A stretch of DNA of 44,487 bases from a virus: IMG/VR virus record IMGVR_UViG_3300029593_000013, one strand, 5' to 3'. A program made the position numbers and the translations under genes. Below are positions 24,530-29,863 of the stretch, piece by piece. Within the stretch, counting starts at the first letter, position 1. Every line of letters begins with the position of its first letter. Below the pieces are notes generated by a model. The model saw only the letters and a list, made by a program, of their open reading frames with translations. It was not told the DNA's origin and searched no databases.

Positions 24530-26203
24530 TTAAGGCAGGGAATATCTTTGTGTTTGCACCAGCAGGAACCCGATAAAAGTTATCGTGGGGTTCGGATGAG
24601 TTGCGTCTGGTGAACCAGAGGCCATCAAATCCGAACACATTTCTCCGCCGGAAGGGGGAGAACCGGCAGGGACCTTATAGGTTTTTTCCGGCAGTCCGGT
24701 GATATTGAATGCCGTTTTGATGGTAATTCCATCCGGGCCATCGTCCCAGACCGTAACGGAGTTTACAAGCAGGTCAAGCAGCATTGCCGTCTGATCTCCA
24801 ACGGCGGCGACCTTATCCCGGACCTTTTCCAGCCAGAATACCACCTTATCCTTTGTCAGGCGTACAGTGTTGCCTTCCTCTTTGACGAGTTCCGATTGCA
24901 AGGCTTTCGTCTGGGCTTCCAGCTCGGCAATGCGGGAGATCAGGTAGCTGGACGTTGCGCCGGATGCCTCGATTGCTGCGGTCAGGTTCCTGATCTTCGT
25001 TTCGTTTTCCTTGATTTCTTTTTGCAAGGCCGGGGCTTTTGACGTGGCTCTGTATGCCTCCTCAGACTGCTTTTCGGCCATGGTGGCGATATGGTCTATC
25101 ACTTCGTCCGTCAGCATGGCACGGGCCTGTTCTGCAACAATTCCTTCGATCCAGTCTTTTTGCAGATTCTTTTTCCGGCAGCCCTTACCACGCTTTTTAC
25201 TGTAGCAAGCGTAGTAATGATAAATCCGGCCCTGCTTGCCACGCCCGGACTCTCCGAACATATTGCTTCCACAGTGGCCACAAAAAATCTTTTGAGACAG
25301 CAGGTACGGGACCTTGGCCTTTGCTTTGGCCGGGGCTTCTGCTACCTGCTTTAATTTTTTTTGCACGGCATCAAACAGCTCCTTATCGATGATTGGCGGG
25401 ATAACATCCTCGGTGTAAACATCCCCGTACCGGCATATCCCGATATACTTTTTGTTTGCCATGATTCGGCTGAACGTGGACCCCCGGAACTCCATATTGT
25501 GCTGTGTCCGGTAGCCACGGGCGTTCAGGTCCCGCATGATGGCCGTGGCGGTCTCACCGGCGGCGTACCGCTCAAACATCTCCTTGACGATGGGCGCATA
25601 TACCGGGTCCAACTCAAGCCGCTTATTGACGGACTTATATCCCAATGGGATAACCCCGCCGGTGCTGGCCCCCTTTAGGGCCGTCTCCCGCATTCCACGC
25701 TTGACTTTTTGGGACAGTTCGGCGGAGTAGTATTCCGCCATTCCTTCCAGTAGGGATTCCAGGATAACGCCTTCTGGGTTTTTGCTGATGTTTTCCTTGG
25801 CGGATTCCACGGTGCAGCCGTTTTTCCGAAGGCGCATCCGGGCAATGGCGGCATCCTCCCGGCGGCGGGCGAAGCGATCCAGTTTCCAGACCAGGACGAT
25901 GGTCCATTCAGACCGTGCGCTGTCCGTCAGCATCTGCTGGAACGCCGGGCGCTTTTCCATGCTGGCGTGGGCCGAGATTGCCCGGTCCACATATACGGCG
26001 GCGCACCGGTAGCCCATCCTCTTGCAAAAATCAAGAAGGTCCCGAAGCTGGCCCTCAATGGATTGCTCCGTCTGCTTGTCGGATGAGTACCGCAAGTAAA
26101 AGCAGCAGACGGTCTCGCACCCGGAATCCAGGGCCTCCGGGCAGCCGTCGAATAGTGTTCTTTCCGCCGGTGTCAGGGCGGACAAATCAATCTGCATTTT
26201 CAT
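24530..26203 (-). CDS. int: large serine recombinase (phage integrase)
   Basis: 557 aa. Resolvase-type N-terminal domain (YLRYSSDKQ...SIEGQ...VWKLDRFARR), recombinase domain, and zinc ribbon CGHCGSNM...YYACYSKKRGKGC followed by a coiled coil. Confidence 0.9.
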   Translation of the reverse strand: MKMQIDLSALTPAERTLFDGCPEALDSGCETVCCFYLRYSSDKQTEQSIEGQLRDLLDFCKRMGYRCAAVYVDRAISAHASMEKRPAFQQMLTDSARSEWTIVLVWKLDRFARRREDAAIARMRLRKNGCTVESAKENISKNPEGVILESLLEGMAEYYSAELSQKVKRGMRETALKGASTGGVIPLGYKSVNKRLELDPVYAPIVKEMFERYAAGETATAIMRDLNARGYRTQHNMEFRGSTFSRIMANKKYIGICRYGDVYTEDVIPPIIDKELFDAVQKKLKQVAEAPAKAKAKVPYLLSQKIFCGHCGSNMFGESGRGKQGRIYHYYACYSKKRGKGCRKKNLQKDWIEGIVAEQARAMLTDEVIDHIATMAEKQSEEAYRATSKAPALQKEIKENETKIRNLTAAIEASGATSSYLISRIAELEAQTKALQSELVKEEGNTVRLTKDKVVFWLEKVRDKVAAVGDQTAMLLDLLVNSVTVWDDGPDGITIKTAFNITGLPEKTYKVPAGSPPSGGEMCSDLMASGSPDATHPNPTITFIGFLLVQTQRYSLP

Positions 26204-26777
26204 GTTCTTTCCTCCGAAGTCTCTTTTTAATTATTGTCTGTCCGATAAACAGGCAAATCCCGATGATTGCCAATGCCGCCAGATACACCCACATATTGAT
26301 ACCGTCGGCCCGGATAAGGCCAATCGTGGGATGCTGGGCATCCAGAACAACATAGGCCATCAGGGCCATGGCCAGGATGATGCACAGGCTTGTAAGGCCG
26401 TAAATGACCGGCTTCCGTTCCCGGATGCCTCCCTCCACCAGCTTGCTGCGCTCTTGCAATAAATCAATCTGTTTGCTGCGTTCTCGCAGCAGTTCCTCTT
26501 TGTGGGCGACCTCCGCTTGCAGAGAGCGTATTTTTTCGCCGGAGGAATCCGGCTCCTCCGGAAGGGAAATGCCCATCAGGGCATCCATGGAGAGGCCCAG
26601 AACCTCGCATATAGCGGCAAGATAAAACGCATTTGGGTTTCCGTTGCATCCGGAGGCCAGCAGTTTATTTACCGTAGACTGCGGCACATTGGCGGCATCG
26701 GCCAGCTGCTGATTGGTAAAACCGCTTATCCGCTTTGCGTCCCGGATTGTTTGCACAACATCATCATAGTCATTCAT
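26187..26777 (-). CDS. membrane-anchored XRE-family HTH protein (HTH + coiled coil + 2 C-terminal TM helices)
   Basis: The HTH is FTNQQLADAANVPQSTVNKLL and the TM segments are VIYGLTSLCIILAMALMAYVVL and MWVYLAALAIIGICLFIGQTII. The stop overlaps the integrase start by 17 nt. Confidence 0.75.
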   Translation of the reverse strand: MNDYDDVVQTIRDAKRISGFTNQQLADAANVPQSTVNKLLASGCNGNPNAFYLAAICEVLGLSMDALMGISLPEEPDSSGEKIRSLQAEVAHKEELLRERSKQIDLLQERSKLVEGGIRERKPVIYGLTSLCIILAMALMAYVVLDAQHPTIGLIRADGINMWVYLAALAIIGICLFIGQTIIKKRLRRKEHENAD

Positions 26778-26926
26778 ACAAATTCCTTTCCTTCGACAAA
26801 ATGATTGAATCAATTCGCTATGAGAAACAGTTTTCACTTTTTCGCAGTCGATTTTACCCTCCCGCTGCGGTATGCTGTCCATGCAGCCGGGTAGCGAGGG
26901 AGCGTAGAGGCTTCATCTGGCGGCAG

Positions 26927-27655: not shown

Positions 27656-28033
27656 TTACTCTTTGGACAATTCCTGAGCGATTTTTTTAATGTATTCTTC
27701 CAGCTTGGGGTATGCTTCGTCCGGCAGCATGGCGAAGGCTTTCACCAGTCGGGCCTTTGCATCGTCGCTGGCCATGATGTCGCCAAAGATGGATTTCAGT
27801 TCTTCCTCCCGGTCCAGGTTCAGGCGCATTTCCCCTTCGCCGGTGCGGAGCCAGGCCTCGCTCACGCCGAAGACACGGCAAATATCCGAGATCGTGCGGT
27901 CGCTGGGTATGCTCTCACCAGATACCATACGGGAGACGTGGGGCTGAGAGACATTTATTTTTTCTGCGAAAGCCGTCTTTGTCATGCCGGATGCCTTTAC
28001 AACCGCTGCGATACGCTCATTGATGGTGCTCAT
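27656..28033 (-). CDS. cI-like XRE-family repressor (125 aa)
   Basis: MSTINERIAAVVKASGMTKTAFAEKINVSQPHVSRMVSG..., AAGGAGGTG RBS. It is divergent from the early promoter. Confidence 0.85.
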   Translation of the reverse strand: MSTINERIAAVVKASGMTKTAFAEKINVSQPHVSRMVSGESIPSDRTISDICRVFGVSEAWLRTGEGEMRLNLDREEELKSIFGDIMASDDAKARLVKAFAMLPDEAYPKLEEYIKKIAQELSKE

Positions 28034-28047
28034 CTGCATCACCTCCT

Positions 28048-28075
28048 TACATTCTGTATTATAGCACACCTCGAA
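28048..28075 (-). promoter_or_regulatory. repressor promoter (TTGACT-16 nt-TATAAT)
   Basis: Minus strand reads TTGACTttttttcgaggtgtgcTATAAT. Confidence 0.65.
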
Positions 28076-28115
28076 AAAAAGTCAAGAAAAATTATGCCTC
28101 ACGCATAAATAGGGC

Positions 28116-28157
28116 TTGACATTATGTTCGGGGCATGATAGAATATGTCCAGAACAT
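28116..28157 (+). promoter_or_regulatory. early rightward promoter (TTGACA-17 nt-TAGAAT) with overlapping operator-like repeats
   Basis: ttgacattatgttcggggcatgatagaat. ATGTTC (28124-29) lies in the spacer and the near-palindrome ATGTCC-A-GAACAT (28145-57) lies at the predicted start site. Confidence 0.7.
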
Positions 28158-28180
28158 GAGAGACACGGGAGGTGAGAACG

Positions 28181-28273
28181 GTGACGGCACTGCAAATCGT
28201 ATCGTTGGTCCTAGGCTGTCTCAGCATTGGCCTGGGTATCGCAACAATGGTGTTAAATCGTTTTCGTGAGTAA
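28181..28273 (+). CDS. 30-aa hydrophobic peptide (first ORF of the early transcript)
   Basis: GTG start after GGGAGGTGA. Product: VTALQIVSLVLGCLSIGLGIATMVLNRFRE. Confidence 0.4.
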   Translation: MTALQIVSLVLGCLSIGLGIATMVLNRFRE

Positions 28274-28287
28274 GGGAGGACAAACAA

Positions 28288-28491
28288 ATGACATGGGTGT
28301 TGATCGCACTCGCTGCAATCGCTGTGCTATGCGGCATCGGGTGGCTTAAAAACGCAATCGCCCTTCGGACGGTGCTTATGTATATGCTCAAACATAGGTA
28401 CACGCTCCCGTCCGAAGAAGAAATGACGGCGTTGTGTAAGTTGGCAATCAGAATGACGCTTGGTTTAAGGAGCGGGAACGACGATGAGTAA
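28288..28491 (+). CDS. small membrane protein (67 aa, N-terminal TM)
   Basis: AAGGGAGGA RBS. Product begins MTWVLIALAAIAVLCGIGWL. Confidence 0.65.
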   Translation: MTWVLIALAAIAVLCGIGWLKNAIALRTVLMYMLKHRYTLPSEEEMTALCKLAIRMTLGLRSGNDDE

Positions 28492-29070
28492 GGCACGGAT
28501 GATGGGAGCGTTCGCTCCCATCCAGAGGCCCCGGCCGGACCGCCGGTGGCAGCAAAAGCAAGGCCTCGGCCCCAAGTTCGGGCCGAAGCCGAAGGTCGAG
28601 AATAACAAAGCCAAAACATAAAGGGCCGGTCCCCGGCCCAAACGTAATGCAGCCTAGGCCGGTTCCAAGCCCGGAGAAATGCAGAGGACGTTGACTGCGG
28701 CGAAAAGAAAGAATCACCTGTGGTTTGGTCACAGATGATTCTCCCCCGGTTTTGTTTGCCGGAATGCGCTGCGCCGAAAGACCGGAGTTTCTGGTCCGGA
28801 AGCTACCCCTGGGCAGCCCACTTCTCCCGGCAGCAAACCAAACTTGCATCCTTGGCGCACCGTTTCACTTCGGCAGTTCCGGTTCTGCCCTTCGCCCTAA
28901 CGCATCACGCCACCTTTGTGGTCCGGTACTGGCGGAAACAAAAGTTGGTTGGATGCTATCATCCCCCATCCTCTTATTTACCCCAATGGGCAACCGGAAC
29001 TATACCACACTTTTCCGCCGCAGTCAACGCAAAAAAAACAAAAAACGGGGCTTTCCCCGAAAATTTATGG
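28492..29070 (+). ncRNA. candidate large structured non-coding RNA or leader (about 580 nt, GC-rich, hairpin-dense)
   Basis: No ORF has an RBS or a plausible translation on either strand. Many local helices are present, for example gatgggagc-gttc-gctcccatc, gggccgg-tcc-ccggccc, ggcctcggccc/gggccgaagcc and gaatcacctgtg/cacagatgattc. Confidence 0.4.
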
Positions 29071-29080
29071 AGGTGTAAAA

Positions 29081-29251
29081 ATGCCCGAAGAAGTCAAGCA
29101 AGTCGCAAAGAGCGCAGCCGAGGCCATTGGCCGAATCCCTGCCGAAAAGGTGGAAATGGCTACCCGGTTCGCCGAGACCTTCGCCGCCGGTCTTGCTACC
29201 GGCATGGCCCTGAACGAGGTCGGAAAGAAGGAGGAGGCGAACAAGGAATGA
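29081..29251 (+). CDS. small hypothetical protein (56 aa)
   Basis: GGAGGTG RBS. Product begins MPEEVKQVAKSAAEAIGRIPAEKVEMATRFAETFAAG. Confidence 0.65.
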   Translation: MPEEVKQVAKSAAEAIGRIPAEKVEMATRFAETFAAGLATGMALNEVGKKEEANKE

Positions 29252-29385
29252 CCCCAGAAGCGGAACTGACCGGAGCCATATATGCGCTCCGGAAGGCGAT
29301 TGAGGCGTTCTACAAGGACCCGCAGAATGAAGCGGATTTTCGCCGCTGGTATCAGGAAAAGTACGGAAAACCATACGAAGAATAA
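29248..29385 (+). CDS. small hypothetical protein (45 aa)
   Basis: ATGA overlap with the upstream gene. Product: MTPEAELTGAIYALRKAIEAFYKDPQNEADFRRWYQEKYGKPYEE. Confidence 0.6.
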   Translation: MTPEAELTGAIYALRKAIEAFYKDPQNEADFRRWYQEKYGKPYEE

Positions 29386-29407
29386 AGAAAAAGGAAGGAA
29401 ATGCAAA

Positions 29408-29863
29408 ATGACAAATCTTGAAAGACGTGTTCTGGCCCTGGAAAAGAAAATGGCCACGCTGACCGCCGGGACGAACGACCCCTACACGCTCCCCGAACCC
29501 AGAGAAGCTGACGAAATCATCAAGGAGATTCTGTTCCGGCTGGGCGTTCCGGCCCATCTGGACGGCTACCGGAACATGGTGGAGGCCATCAAAATCGTGA
29601 TGGATGCCCCAAACATCCCGGTACGCACACTCTATGCTGAAGTAGCGGCAAAAAGCGGGAAATCCTGCTGCATCGACCGGTCCATGCGCCATGCTATCGA
29701 GGTGGCCTGGTCCAGAGGCAATGTGGAGGAGCAGGAGCGCTACTTTGGCAATACGGTGGACCCCAAGCGGGGAATGCCCACGGTAGGCCACTTGGTCTGG
29801 ACCCTGGCCGAGGAAGTCAAGCACATCATGGAGGAGGAACAGCGGAATGCAGTACATCACTGA
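29408..29863 (+). CDS. standalone Spo0A C-terminal (DNA-binding effector) domain protein
   Basis: LGVPAHLDGYRNMVEAIKIVMD...MRHAIEVAWSRGN...FGNTVDPKRGMPTVGHLV matches the Spo0A_C signature (..RAIRHAIEVAWSRG..). There is no receiver domain. Confidence 0.8.
   Translation: MTNLERRVLALEKKMATLTAGTNDPYTLPEPREADEIIKEILFRLGVPAHLDGYRNMVEAIKIVMDAPNIPVRTLYAEVAAKSGKSCCIDRSMRHAIEVAWSRGNVEEQERYFGNTVDPKRGMPTVGHLVWTLAEEVKHIMEEEQRNAVHH

Follow-up and report, generated by a model that had tools for sequence, protein, structure and literature searches.

Phage immunity systems include several countertranscripts: sar of P22, which is antisense to the ant leader, c4 of P1 and P7, and OOP of lambda. The lambda P_RE transcript is antisense to cro and sense for cI. 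The twister class of ribozymes reportedly goes back to Roth et al. 2014. A twister requires stems P1, P2 and P4, with P0, P3 and P5 being optional, and cleaves at a U-A step beside P1 (PMC5408937); in the 3' product of cleavage, the pseudoknots persist and the 5' end is buried (PMC8782182). Processing of polycistronic mRNA by twisters has been suggested, but is unproven (PMC6765202). FuFi-1, an RNA that Rfam classes as a small RNA (sRNA), was singled out in 2017 as one of a small number of widespread bacterial RNAs with hallmarks of complex biochemical function (PMC5737381). That study describes a highly conserved motif with a 3' terminator for which self-cleavage was not found, and to which the authors ascribe a probable "sophisticated biochemical function" while judging a riboswitch role improbable (Weinberg et al. 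2017, PMC5737381). Here, we describe a locus at positions 28492-29070 of a 44,487-nt virus DNA (IMG/VR record IMGVR_UViG_3300029593_000013; "the window" denotes this whole stretch) in which a twister and a FuFi-1 RNA lie next to each other on opposite strands.

The region is composed of a probable small protein gene and, after it, two catalogued RNA elements, a twister ribozyme on the plus strand and a FuFi-1 transcription unit on the minus strand. The identity of these parts is near certain. New here are how the FuFi-1 unit is built, where it lies in the genome, and its rare coupling to a twister. A preliminary description of this DNA had taken the hairpin-dense stretch as a candidate large structured RNA that resembles the ornate ROOL and GOLLD classes in size and context. 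Its expectation of a conserved structured RNA was borne out by two Rfam families, both with covariation, and the cmscan run against Rfam that it proposed proved to be the right test, which identified FuFi-1 and, in a permissive scan, the twister. Both RNAs are members of already described families; the description had found a real RNA-rich locus and mis-assigned it.

FuFi-1 gave the only match within the region that passes a Rfam gathering threshold (Table 1). More than 110 viral loci were collected via the invariant FuFi-1 hairpin (loci and related contigs are given L numbers below), and Rfam confirmed a full-length FuFi-1 in 17 of the 20 loci tested. The RNA is part of a longer unit. The promoter-like site that precedes it in the window recurs 80–86 nt from the start of the Rfam model in about 25 other FuFi-1 units. 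Transcription from this site would start at about 28992-28990 and yield an RNA of about 288 nt (28991 to 28703). The intrinsic terminator at its end, which a simple terminator scan did not list, aligns to the terminal hairpin of the Rfam model (positions about 141–175), and 9 of 14 pairs in its stem change on both sides.

The full fold and a long-range helix outside the Rfam model were tested on 14 full-length units from unrelated contexts. In this alignment 95.7% of the cells are paired, as compared to 40–49% in slid controls, and 17 pairs change on both sides, as compared to 9.1 ± 1.7 in shuffles (0/500). The long-range helix (columns 75–79/283–287) is 94% paired, with three of its five pairs changed on both sides (AU/GC/CG, GC/AU and AU/UA). 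Three of the seven pairs in the first model stem (positions 1–7 with 47–53) are non-canonical in the window copy, and the core of this subgroup is closed by the other, long-range helix. The 5' extension of the unit pairs with the stretch just before the conserved UAAACAAA. The core helices carry many G·U pairs on the FuFi-1 strand, in agreement with the orientation given by Rfam. Judged against the 175-nt Rfam model, the anatomy beyond that model and the genomic context are new for this orphan class; the comparison behind them spans more than 80 viral loci.

The 5' extension has conserved parts of its own. A Shine–Dalgarno (SD) sequence, ATG or TTG, and ACCAAACUUUUGA... recur in most FuFi-1 subgroups. 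The near-invariant ACCAAACUUUUGA(A/C)UUGCC at the 5' ends stands at a variable distance from the core (for example in L131, L152, L155, L191 and L224), and long-type units contain an extra conserved domain (GGCACCAAAGCAC.UAAAACUGG...) between the SD/start element and the core. A helix between the SD (AGGAG) and CUUUU, proposed by RNAalifold, showed no covariation in the 14-unit alignment. We rejected an interaction in which CUUUUG would pair with CAAAAC in the loop of this hairpin: in the window and L131 the loop reads CCGGAAC, and no corresponding change accompanies it.

The twister match stems from a permissive Rfam scan of 1.6 kb, to which its E value refers. Its score (55.1 bits; 51.4 bits in relatives) stays below the gathering score of 67.2 because the optional P3 hairpin is deleted. 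The conserved core elements UAA, GCC, CCAAGCCCGG, AAA and GAGG all align to conserved positions of RF03160, and cleavage is expected between U28645 and A28646, at the U-A step that follows P1. Among 19 distinct compact homologues, 96% of the cells are paired (P1 84%, P2 99%, P4 100%), versus 22–38% with partners slid. Changes on both sides affect each of the four P1 pairs and one pair of P2, while P4 and the pseudoknots were fixed by the search pattern and are uninformative for covariation.

Compact, P3-less twisters occur in dozens of unrelated viral contigs. Since a hairpin of −8 kcal/mol or lower occupies the P0 position in 26 of 37 distinct contexts, and a ribosome-binding site (RBS) with a start codon follows within 45 nt in 25 of the 37, the usual role of these ribozymes looks like that of an intercistronic processing site. 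That they are missed at the Rfam gathering threshold is a lesson for genome annotation. A circularly permuted core (...GCAGAGGAC-hairpin-GUAAUGCRGC...CCGGUUCCAAGCCCGG...) was observed in L025, L048, L054, L058, L072 and L075; these forms are apparently of type P3/P5, and L075 has two copies about 820 nt apart.

An inverted repeat brackets the FuFi-1 unit. In the window, it is 18 nt long and 94% complementary, with the arms 305 nt apart; across loci it measures 13–27 nt, and it occurs with both the short and the long type of unit. When phage groups with unrelated flanks are compared, homology begins at the −35 box (TTGACTGCGGCGG) and stops at the inverted copy (CCGCCGCAGTCAA) past the terminator. 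The arms vary in a compensatory manner (GCGGCG/CGCCGC to GCGGCA/TGCCGC or GCTGCC/GGCAGC), and quite different pairs of 16–27 nt are found in L170, L197 and L216. Because both arms lie outside the FuFi-1 transcript, they can pair only in DNA or in lytic-sense RNA. The helix core of 20 distinct arm pairs comprises 273 Watson–Crick cells, 20 cells with G·U on the lytic strand and A·C on the FuFi-1 strand, 2 of the opposite kind and 1 other. These data suggest that the bracket repeat would form an RNA helix in the lytic-sense transcript, and the minimum free energy fold of the plus strand of the window does form the helix 28689-28706/29012-29029. The tetranucleotide AACG is present at both 28641-44 and 29026-29. 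Since CGUU at 28689-92 serves both P1 and the left arm, the 4-bp P1 cannot coexist with the outer end of the 18-bp helix.

FuFi-1 occupies a defined position in phage genomes. At 45 of 53 loci, a co-oriented gene of about 110–150 amino acids (aa) starts 150–300 nt past the terminator. These genes group into a single similarity cluster, which includes homologues of the window repressor (E 3e-25), and match HTH_3 or the Cro/C1 helix-turn-helix (HTH) family in Pfam checks. Only HTH clustering and Pfam checks were used for this purpose; length-based calling of open reading frames (ORFs) around FuFi-1 mis-strands some genes in GC-rich DNA. On the other side and the other strand lie early genes, including Rha and Bro-N/KilAC antirepressor genes. 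Because a CI-like repressor gene follows the unit in the same orientation at these 45 loci, lytic transcription crosses FuFi-1 antisense. In L116, L131 and L234, the transcript from a near-consensus lytic promoter must cross the unit in this way to reach the early genes, and the layout of the window is the same except for additional small ORFs and the twister, which lie in between. The idea that twister and FuFi-1 are general neighbours was rejected, as no twister core was found near about 80 other FuFi-1 loci. No other Rfam family was found beside FuFi-1 at 17 loci scanned. Among viral contigs, a gapped twister–FuFi-1 junction pattern occurs only in the lineage of the window; its sole match in genome contigs is due to chance, since it lies inside a coding gene and has no Rfam signal.

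Close relatives differ in exactly this part of the genome. Most of those with 94–100% identical flanks carry both twister and FuFi-1. L239 and L245 have kept the twister, with FuFi-1 destroyed by internal deletions, and in L003, L233 and L241 position 28640 is joined directly to 29020. The latter three are deletion derivatives, because the P0 hairpin and a remnant of the outer repeat (GCAATCAACGC) persist. Since phages with almost the same sequence may have both RNAs, only the twister, or none of the two, the module is dispensable. L234, another close relative, has a second, divergent FuFi-1 (889-1104 on the minus strand, 80.8 bits) besides the twister-linked copy. This copy 1 has a promoter with 12 of 12 consensus matches and lies in the canonical place, about 350 nt upstream of the repressor gene. 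BLAST detected the same divergent segment in L235 (1051-1177) and L237 (1319-1445); the Rfam run was made on L234 only. Arm-to-arm removal of the unit would place the twister and the RBS of the 56-aa gene about 50 nt apart. Since this would restore the usual twister layout, FuFi-1 appears to have joined a pre-existing twister site.

With moderate confidence we propose that the region is a composite regulatory leader of the early lytic operon, which combines processing by the twister with an antisense FuFi-1 countertranscript. Taken alone, the countertranscript function of FuFi-1 is plausible, though somewhat short of probable. In this scheme, the early plus-strand transcript would carry the twister (P0-P1-P2-P4, double pseudoknot) after the basic-protein gene and would be cut at U28645/A28646. 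Of the two products, the upstream one would carry the P0 hairpin and a 2',3'-cyclic phosphate at its end, and the downstream one a 5'-OH and the folded ribozyme body at its start. In this way, the ribozyme may separate the mRNA of the upstream small ORFs from the downstream early mRNA. Lytic transcription toward the genes from 29081 on would run head-on into the FuFi-1 promoter, and the resulting transcript would be fully complementary to FuFi-1 RNA. FuFi-1 may thereby damp early lytic expression, or set a threshold for it, by transcriptional interference, by sense–antisense pairing, or by both, as a device akin to the classical immunity countertranscripts. The 18-nt bracket repeat would pair in the lytic-sense RNA and loop out the antisense segment. 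We surmise that the twister folds and cuts first, and that the bracket helix forms second. Ribozyme activity, transcription from the predicted promoters and all regulatory effects are, in this account, predictions from sequence.

Several observations weigh against this proposal. A plain cis-antisense role leaves the strong conservation of the FuFi-1 core across unrelated flanks unexplained, and the dispensability of the module means that any regulatory effect is modulatory at most. The tested FuFi-1 structure was derived from the same alignment as the test. The twister scores below the Rfam gathering score, and with its core fixed by the search pattern, support from covariation is limited to P1 and P2. 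Some FuFi-1 loci are devoid of the bracket repeat. Counted by distinct kinds of mismatch, the wobble asymmetry in the arms is only 8 versus 2 (p about 0.11), and such a bias is possible because one arm doubles as a −35 box. Finally, in B. subtilis RNase J1 breaks down the 5'-OH RNA that glmS ribozyme cleavage leaves, so that any twister effect on the downstream mRNA could go in either direction. A bolder extension of the proposal would make FuFi-1 units portable sense/antisense switch cassettes for the lysis–lysogeny decision, with an intricately folded countertranscript, set head-on in the lytic leader beside the repressor gene, that may sense a ligand, a protein or the ribosome, and a selected plus-strand bracket helix, here coupled to the twister, that processes or insulates the lytic mRNA. 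We regard this extension as unlikely; if true, it would assign a function to the orphan FuFi-1 class and establish a novel kind of immunity element in phages.

The strong conservation of core sequence and structure among phages with unrelated flanks could also point to a trans-acting structured RNA that binds a protein, acts as a sponge, is directed at the host, or counters defence, its antisense site being a merely tolerated "RNA moron" cassette. Such a role would agree with the self-contained order of promoter, RNA and terminator, with homology that stops exactly at the bracket repeat, and with a unit that is dispensable in close relatives. FuFi-1 is also listed as an sRNA in Rfam, and its discoverers suspected a complex biochemical function (PMC5737381). 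However, the placement is strongly non-random, always in the path of lytic transcription and co-oriented beside a repressor gene in 45 of 53 loci, and the bracket repeat is seemingly selected on RNA of the opposite strand, which implies that the sense transcript matters. A trans-acting role is therefore rather unlikely. The nearby repressor gene raises another option, namely that FuFi-1 is a cis leader whose terminator acts conditionally, in the manner of a riboswitch or under the control of ribosomes or proteins, so that read-through would feed this gene, as with the lambda P_RE transcript. The co-oriented CI-like gene 150–300 nt past the terminator in the same 45 of 53 loci and the complex conserved fold directly upstream of the terminator are what such a leader would look like; the conserved 5' SD and start codon could couple translation to folding, and copy 1 of L234 sits 350 nt upstream of the repressor gene. 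In the window, however, FuFi-1 is separated from the repressor gene by two more minus-strand terminator-like hairpins (28639-28623 and 28590-28562) and 640 nt, and L116, L131 and L234 have independent repressor promoters between FuFi-1 and the gene. No alternative antiterminator pairing was found, and Weinberg et al. speak against a riboswitch as well (PMC5737381). We consider a conditional terminator improbable. The same 5' element might encode a micro-peptide of about 13–36 aa with the N-terminus M-T-K-L-L-x-L-P. A strong SD (AAGGAGGUG) stands at the correct spacing from ATG or TTG in most subgroups, and an LLxLPVP-type frame is kept in 23 of 71 upstream regions. We downgraded this coding reading, which had drawn on synonymous-looking Pro/Val changes, because 1-nt indels break the frame after about eight codons (L139, L148), the CUU-UUG Leu codons never vary synonymously, and the covarying long-range helix accounts for the third-position variation. 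Length and C-terminus are unconserved as well, and a functional micro-peptide is improbable.

Terminal inverted repeats of 13–27 nt exactly at the limits of homology between unrelated phages, combined with presence/absence polymorphism, are reminiscent of mobile DNA, such as a transposase-dependent element akin to a miniature inverted-repeat transposable element (MITE). They could also mark an invertible promoter/terminator segment flipped by a recombinase: inversion would put the FuFi-1 terminator into the lytic transcript, and a serine recombinase gene is nearby. Yet there are no target-site duplications, the "empty" sites keep the P0 hairpin and the outer repeat and hence represent deletions rather than vacant targets, and no inverted copy was seen among dozens of related contigs. 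Compensatory variation of the repeat fits pairing better than recognition by a single protein, and a mobile or invertible element is very improbable. The single large plus-strand RNA spanning about 28492-29070 that had been envisaged in the preliminary description, whether of the ROOL/GOLLD type or novel, is by now largely refuted and hardly credible. The plus strand of 28492-29070 does fold well (−230.4 kcal/mol, z = −5.35, 0/100 dinucleotide shuffles as good), and the long-range helix 28689-28706/29012-29029 probably forms on it. The minus strand folds even better (−268.8 kcal/mol, z = −6.44, again 0/100 shuffles as good). The conserved helices carry their G·U pairs on this minus strand, where promoter and terminator define a gene, the left quarter of the region is probably coding, and the twister and FuFi-1 halves occur independently in other phages. 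ROOL, GOLLD, HEARO, OLE and raiA gave no match at gathering score in the whole window and none at E ≤ 1 in 28000-29600. Instead of one ornate RNA, we find two small elements on opposite strands and a coding segment.

The coding segment is ORF45. Its ATG overlaps the stop codon of the upstream ORF (ATGAGTAA), with AGGAG upstream. Its reading frame is uninterrupted and of one length in the window, L001, L002 and L003. Substitutions include AGG to CGC, which keeps Arg, and several at third codon positions, while in L002 two mismatches without compensation weaken the hairpin at 28501-28522. ORF45 has been called as a gene in other assemblies and has no Pfam or PHROG family. From these features, 28484-28621 probably codes for a small basic protein. 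The statement that about 580 nt have no believable ORF hence probably fails for the left quarter and holds for about 28622-29080 (about 460 nt). In the latter part, gene callers report ORFs of 74, 163 or 188 aa over the module in some relatives with 97–98% identical DNA and none in others, and we rejected these as genes for this lack of conservation.

All six hairpins listed in the preliminary description were found in the sequence, but they are not parts of one RNA. Three (28501-22, 28528-51 and 28562-90) lie inside ORF45. The others belong to the known elements, as the twister P0 hairpin (28623-39), the FuFi-1 terminator (28710-42, minus strand) and the hairpin of the FuFi-1 5' extension (28953-66, minus strand). 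The GC content is raised only mildly, at 0.55–0.59 versus about 0.52 nearby. With this composition, short two-copy direct repeats only, and neither iterons nor an AT-rich tract, the region does not look like an origin, which had been named as a fallback. A long regulatory leader came nearest among these fallbacks, in the sense that the plus strand would form a processed leader that carries an antisense gene. The proposed position in an early operon transcribed in the sense direction also agrees with our data, as a strong plus-strand promoter-like site lies upstream and no plus-strand terminator-like site intervenes. In 27900-29300, none of the seven terminator-like sites found is on the plus strand; all are on the minus strand. 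GC-rich hairpins followed by T-runs on this strand only were seen at 29059-29046, 28639-28623 and 28590-28562. Lytic transcription would pass these three unhindered, whereas minus-strand transcription would end at them, before and after the FuFi-1 unit. The hairpins at 29059-29046 and 28639-28623 are kept in relatives that do not have the module.

The window derives from a temperate phage or prophage with a Firmicutes-type host (Table 1). The first two ORFs of the early operon, 28172-28273 (33 aa) and 28288-28491 (67 aa) on the plus strand, have hydrophobic N-termini that resemble membrane helices; L003 has no 33-aa ORF. Because a protein identical to the 56-aa product is recorded in 417 blocks of a public assembly collection, the phage lineage is common. 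A blastn search of 28100-29400 against 50,697 annotated phage genomes returned no match. The 56-aa gene is followed by genes for a Spo0A_C-domain protein and a YqaJ exonuclease. The former (29408-29863, plus strand), which contains the DNA-binding C-terminal domain of Spo0A (Pfam E 8.5e-24), is kept in all close relatives and could let the phage interfere with sporulation control of the host. Two tRNA genes are present at 6060-6132 and 6218-6290 (plus strand; Rfam tRNA, 56.5 and 67.7 bits). In L241, IS-type transposase genes (an rve integrase core and an HTH ORF; 1-1466, minus strand) replace the integrase-side repressor neighbour.

Table 1. Features of the twister/FuFi-1 locus and its surroundings in the window
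Feature	Position	Strand	Remarks
Large serine integrase gene	24530-26203	-	left of the region
HTH repressor-like gene	26187-26882	-	left of the region
HTH repressor-like gene	27656-28069	-	left of the region
Repressor promoter-like site	28085-28058	-	back-to-back with the early plus-strand promoter-like site
Early (lytic) promoter-like site TTGACA-17-TAGAAT with TG	28116-28144	+	11/12 consensus matches; putative source of the sense transcript across the region
Probable gene for a 45-aa very basic Pro/Lys/Arg-rich protein (ORF45)	28484-28621	+	translationally coupled to the upstream 67-aa ORF
P0-equivalent hairpin GGGCCGG-UCC-CCGGCCC	28623-28639	+	abuts the ribozyme; terminator-like with T tail when read on the minus strand
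379-nt module (twister and FuFi-1 unit)	28641-29019		absent from near-identical phages
Type-P1 twister without P3	28641-28692 (52 nt)	+	RF03160, 55.1 bits, E 3e-11 (permissive scan), full model 1-68, P3 hairpin deleted
Twister P1	28641-44/28689-92	+	Rfam alignment
Twister P2	28648-51/28680-83	+	Rfam alignment
Twister P4	28659-62/28671-74	+	Rfam alignment
Twister T1 pseudoknot	UCC 28664-66/GGA 28686-88	+	pair U28664-A28688 replaces consensus C-G
Twister T2 pseudoknot	GC 28652-53/GC 28669-70	+	complementarity present
Bracket repeat, left arm (CGTTGACTGCGGCGAAAA)	28689-28706		first 4 nt also 3' strand of twister P1
FuFi-1 intrinsic terminator	28742-28703	-	13-bp stem 28742-28730/28722-28710, U-tract 28709-28703
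FuFi-1 core, Rfam RF02986	28914-28708	-	76.8 bits vs gathering 59.6, model 1-175, E 1e-14 (whole window)
Invariant FuFi-1 hairpin GCAGAACCGGAACUGC	28888-28873	-	in the core
Long-range helix outside the Rfam model, closing the whole core	CCGGA 28926-28922/UCCGG 28763-28759	-	14-unit alignment
FuFi-1 5' extension element	28973-28897	-	SD-like GAGGA 28973-28969, AUG 28962
Candidate 21-codon ORF (MIASNQLLFPPVPDHKGGVMR)	28962-28897	-	in the 5' extension; ends at UAG 28899-28897
Hairpin GGAUG-AUAG-CAUCC	28966-28953	-	in the 5' extension
FuFi-1 promoter-like site TTGACT-17-TATAGT with TG	29027-28999	-	near-consensus in a promoter scan
Bracket repeat, right arm (TTTCCGCCGCAGTCAACG)	29012-29029		overlaps the −35 box of the FuFi-1 promoter
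Terminator-like hairpin CGGGGAAAGCCCCG and T-run	29046-29059	-	directly precedes the FuFi-1 promoter; T tail missing on the plus strand
RBS GGAGGUG (29069-29075) and 56-aa gene (ATG 29081)	29069-29251	+	first early gene past the module

FuFi-1 is now placed at a defined spot in temperate phages, where it faces early lytic transcription beside a CI-like repressor gene. The natural isogenic variants with both RNAs, the twister only, or neither make this orphan motif testable for lysogeny control in abundant gut phages. The locus also gives a concrete in vivo context for a twister ribozyme.

The likeness to ROOL and GOLLD consists in the setting in a Firmicutes prophage, non-coding DNA that spans several hundred nt and a strong predicted fold, and ends there, with no match in sequence or structure. 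The ribozyme agrees with twister RF03160 in stems P1, P2 and P4, both pseudoknots, the UAA cleavage-site loop, the conserved L1 and L4 nucleotides and the optional P0, as well as in its place among phage genes, between cistrons (PMC6765202, PMC10085705). It differs in that P3 is absent, one T1 pair is U-A instead of C-G, and the 3' strand of P1 also belongs to a long-range helix whose arms flank an antisense RNA gene. The FuFi-1 copy covers the full RF02986 model, scores above the gathering threshold and contains the invariant GCAGAACC..AACUGC hairpin, the GGYAAACAAA region and the 3' intrinsic terminator. In contrast to the model, its first stem is poorly paired, and the unit exceeds 175 nt by a promoter 85 nt upstream, the SD/AUG extension, the covarying long-range helix and the bracket repeat. 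Like sar, c4, OOP and P_RE, FuFi-1 has its own promoter, opposes an early lytic or antirepressor transcript and lies beside a repressor gene with convergent promoters, which here are consensus matches only. As a small RNA with its own terminator, it further resembles the countertranscripts sar, c4 and OOP. These, however, are simple hairpins of about 70–80 nt, each from one phage, whereas FuFi-1 is an intricate fold of about 290 nt that occurs in many unrelated phages.

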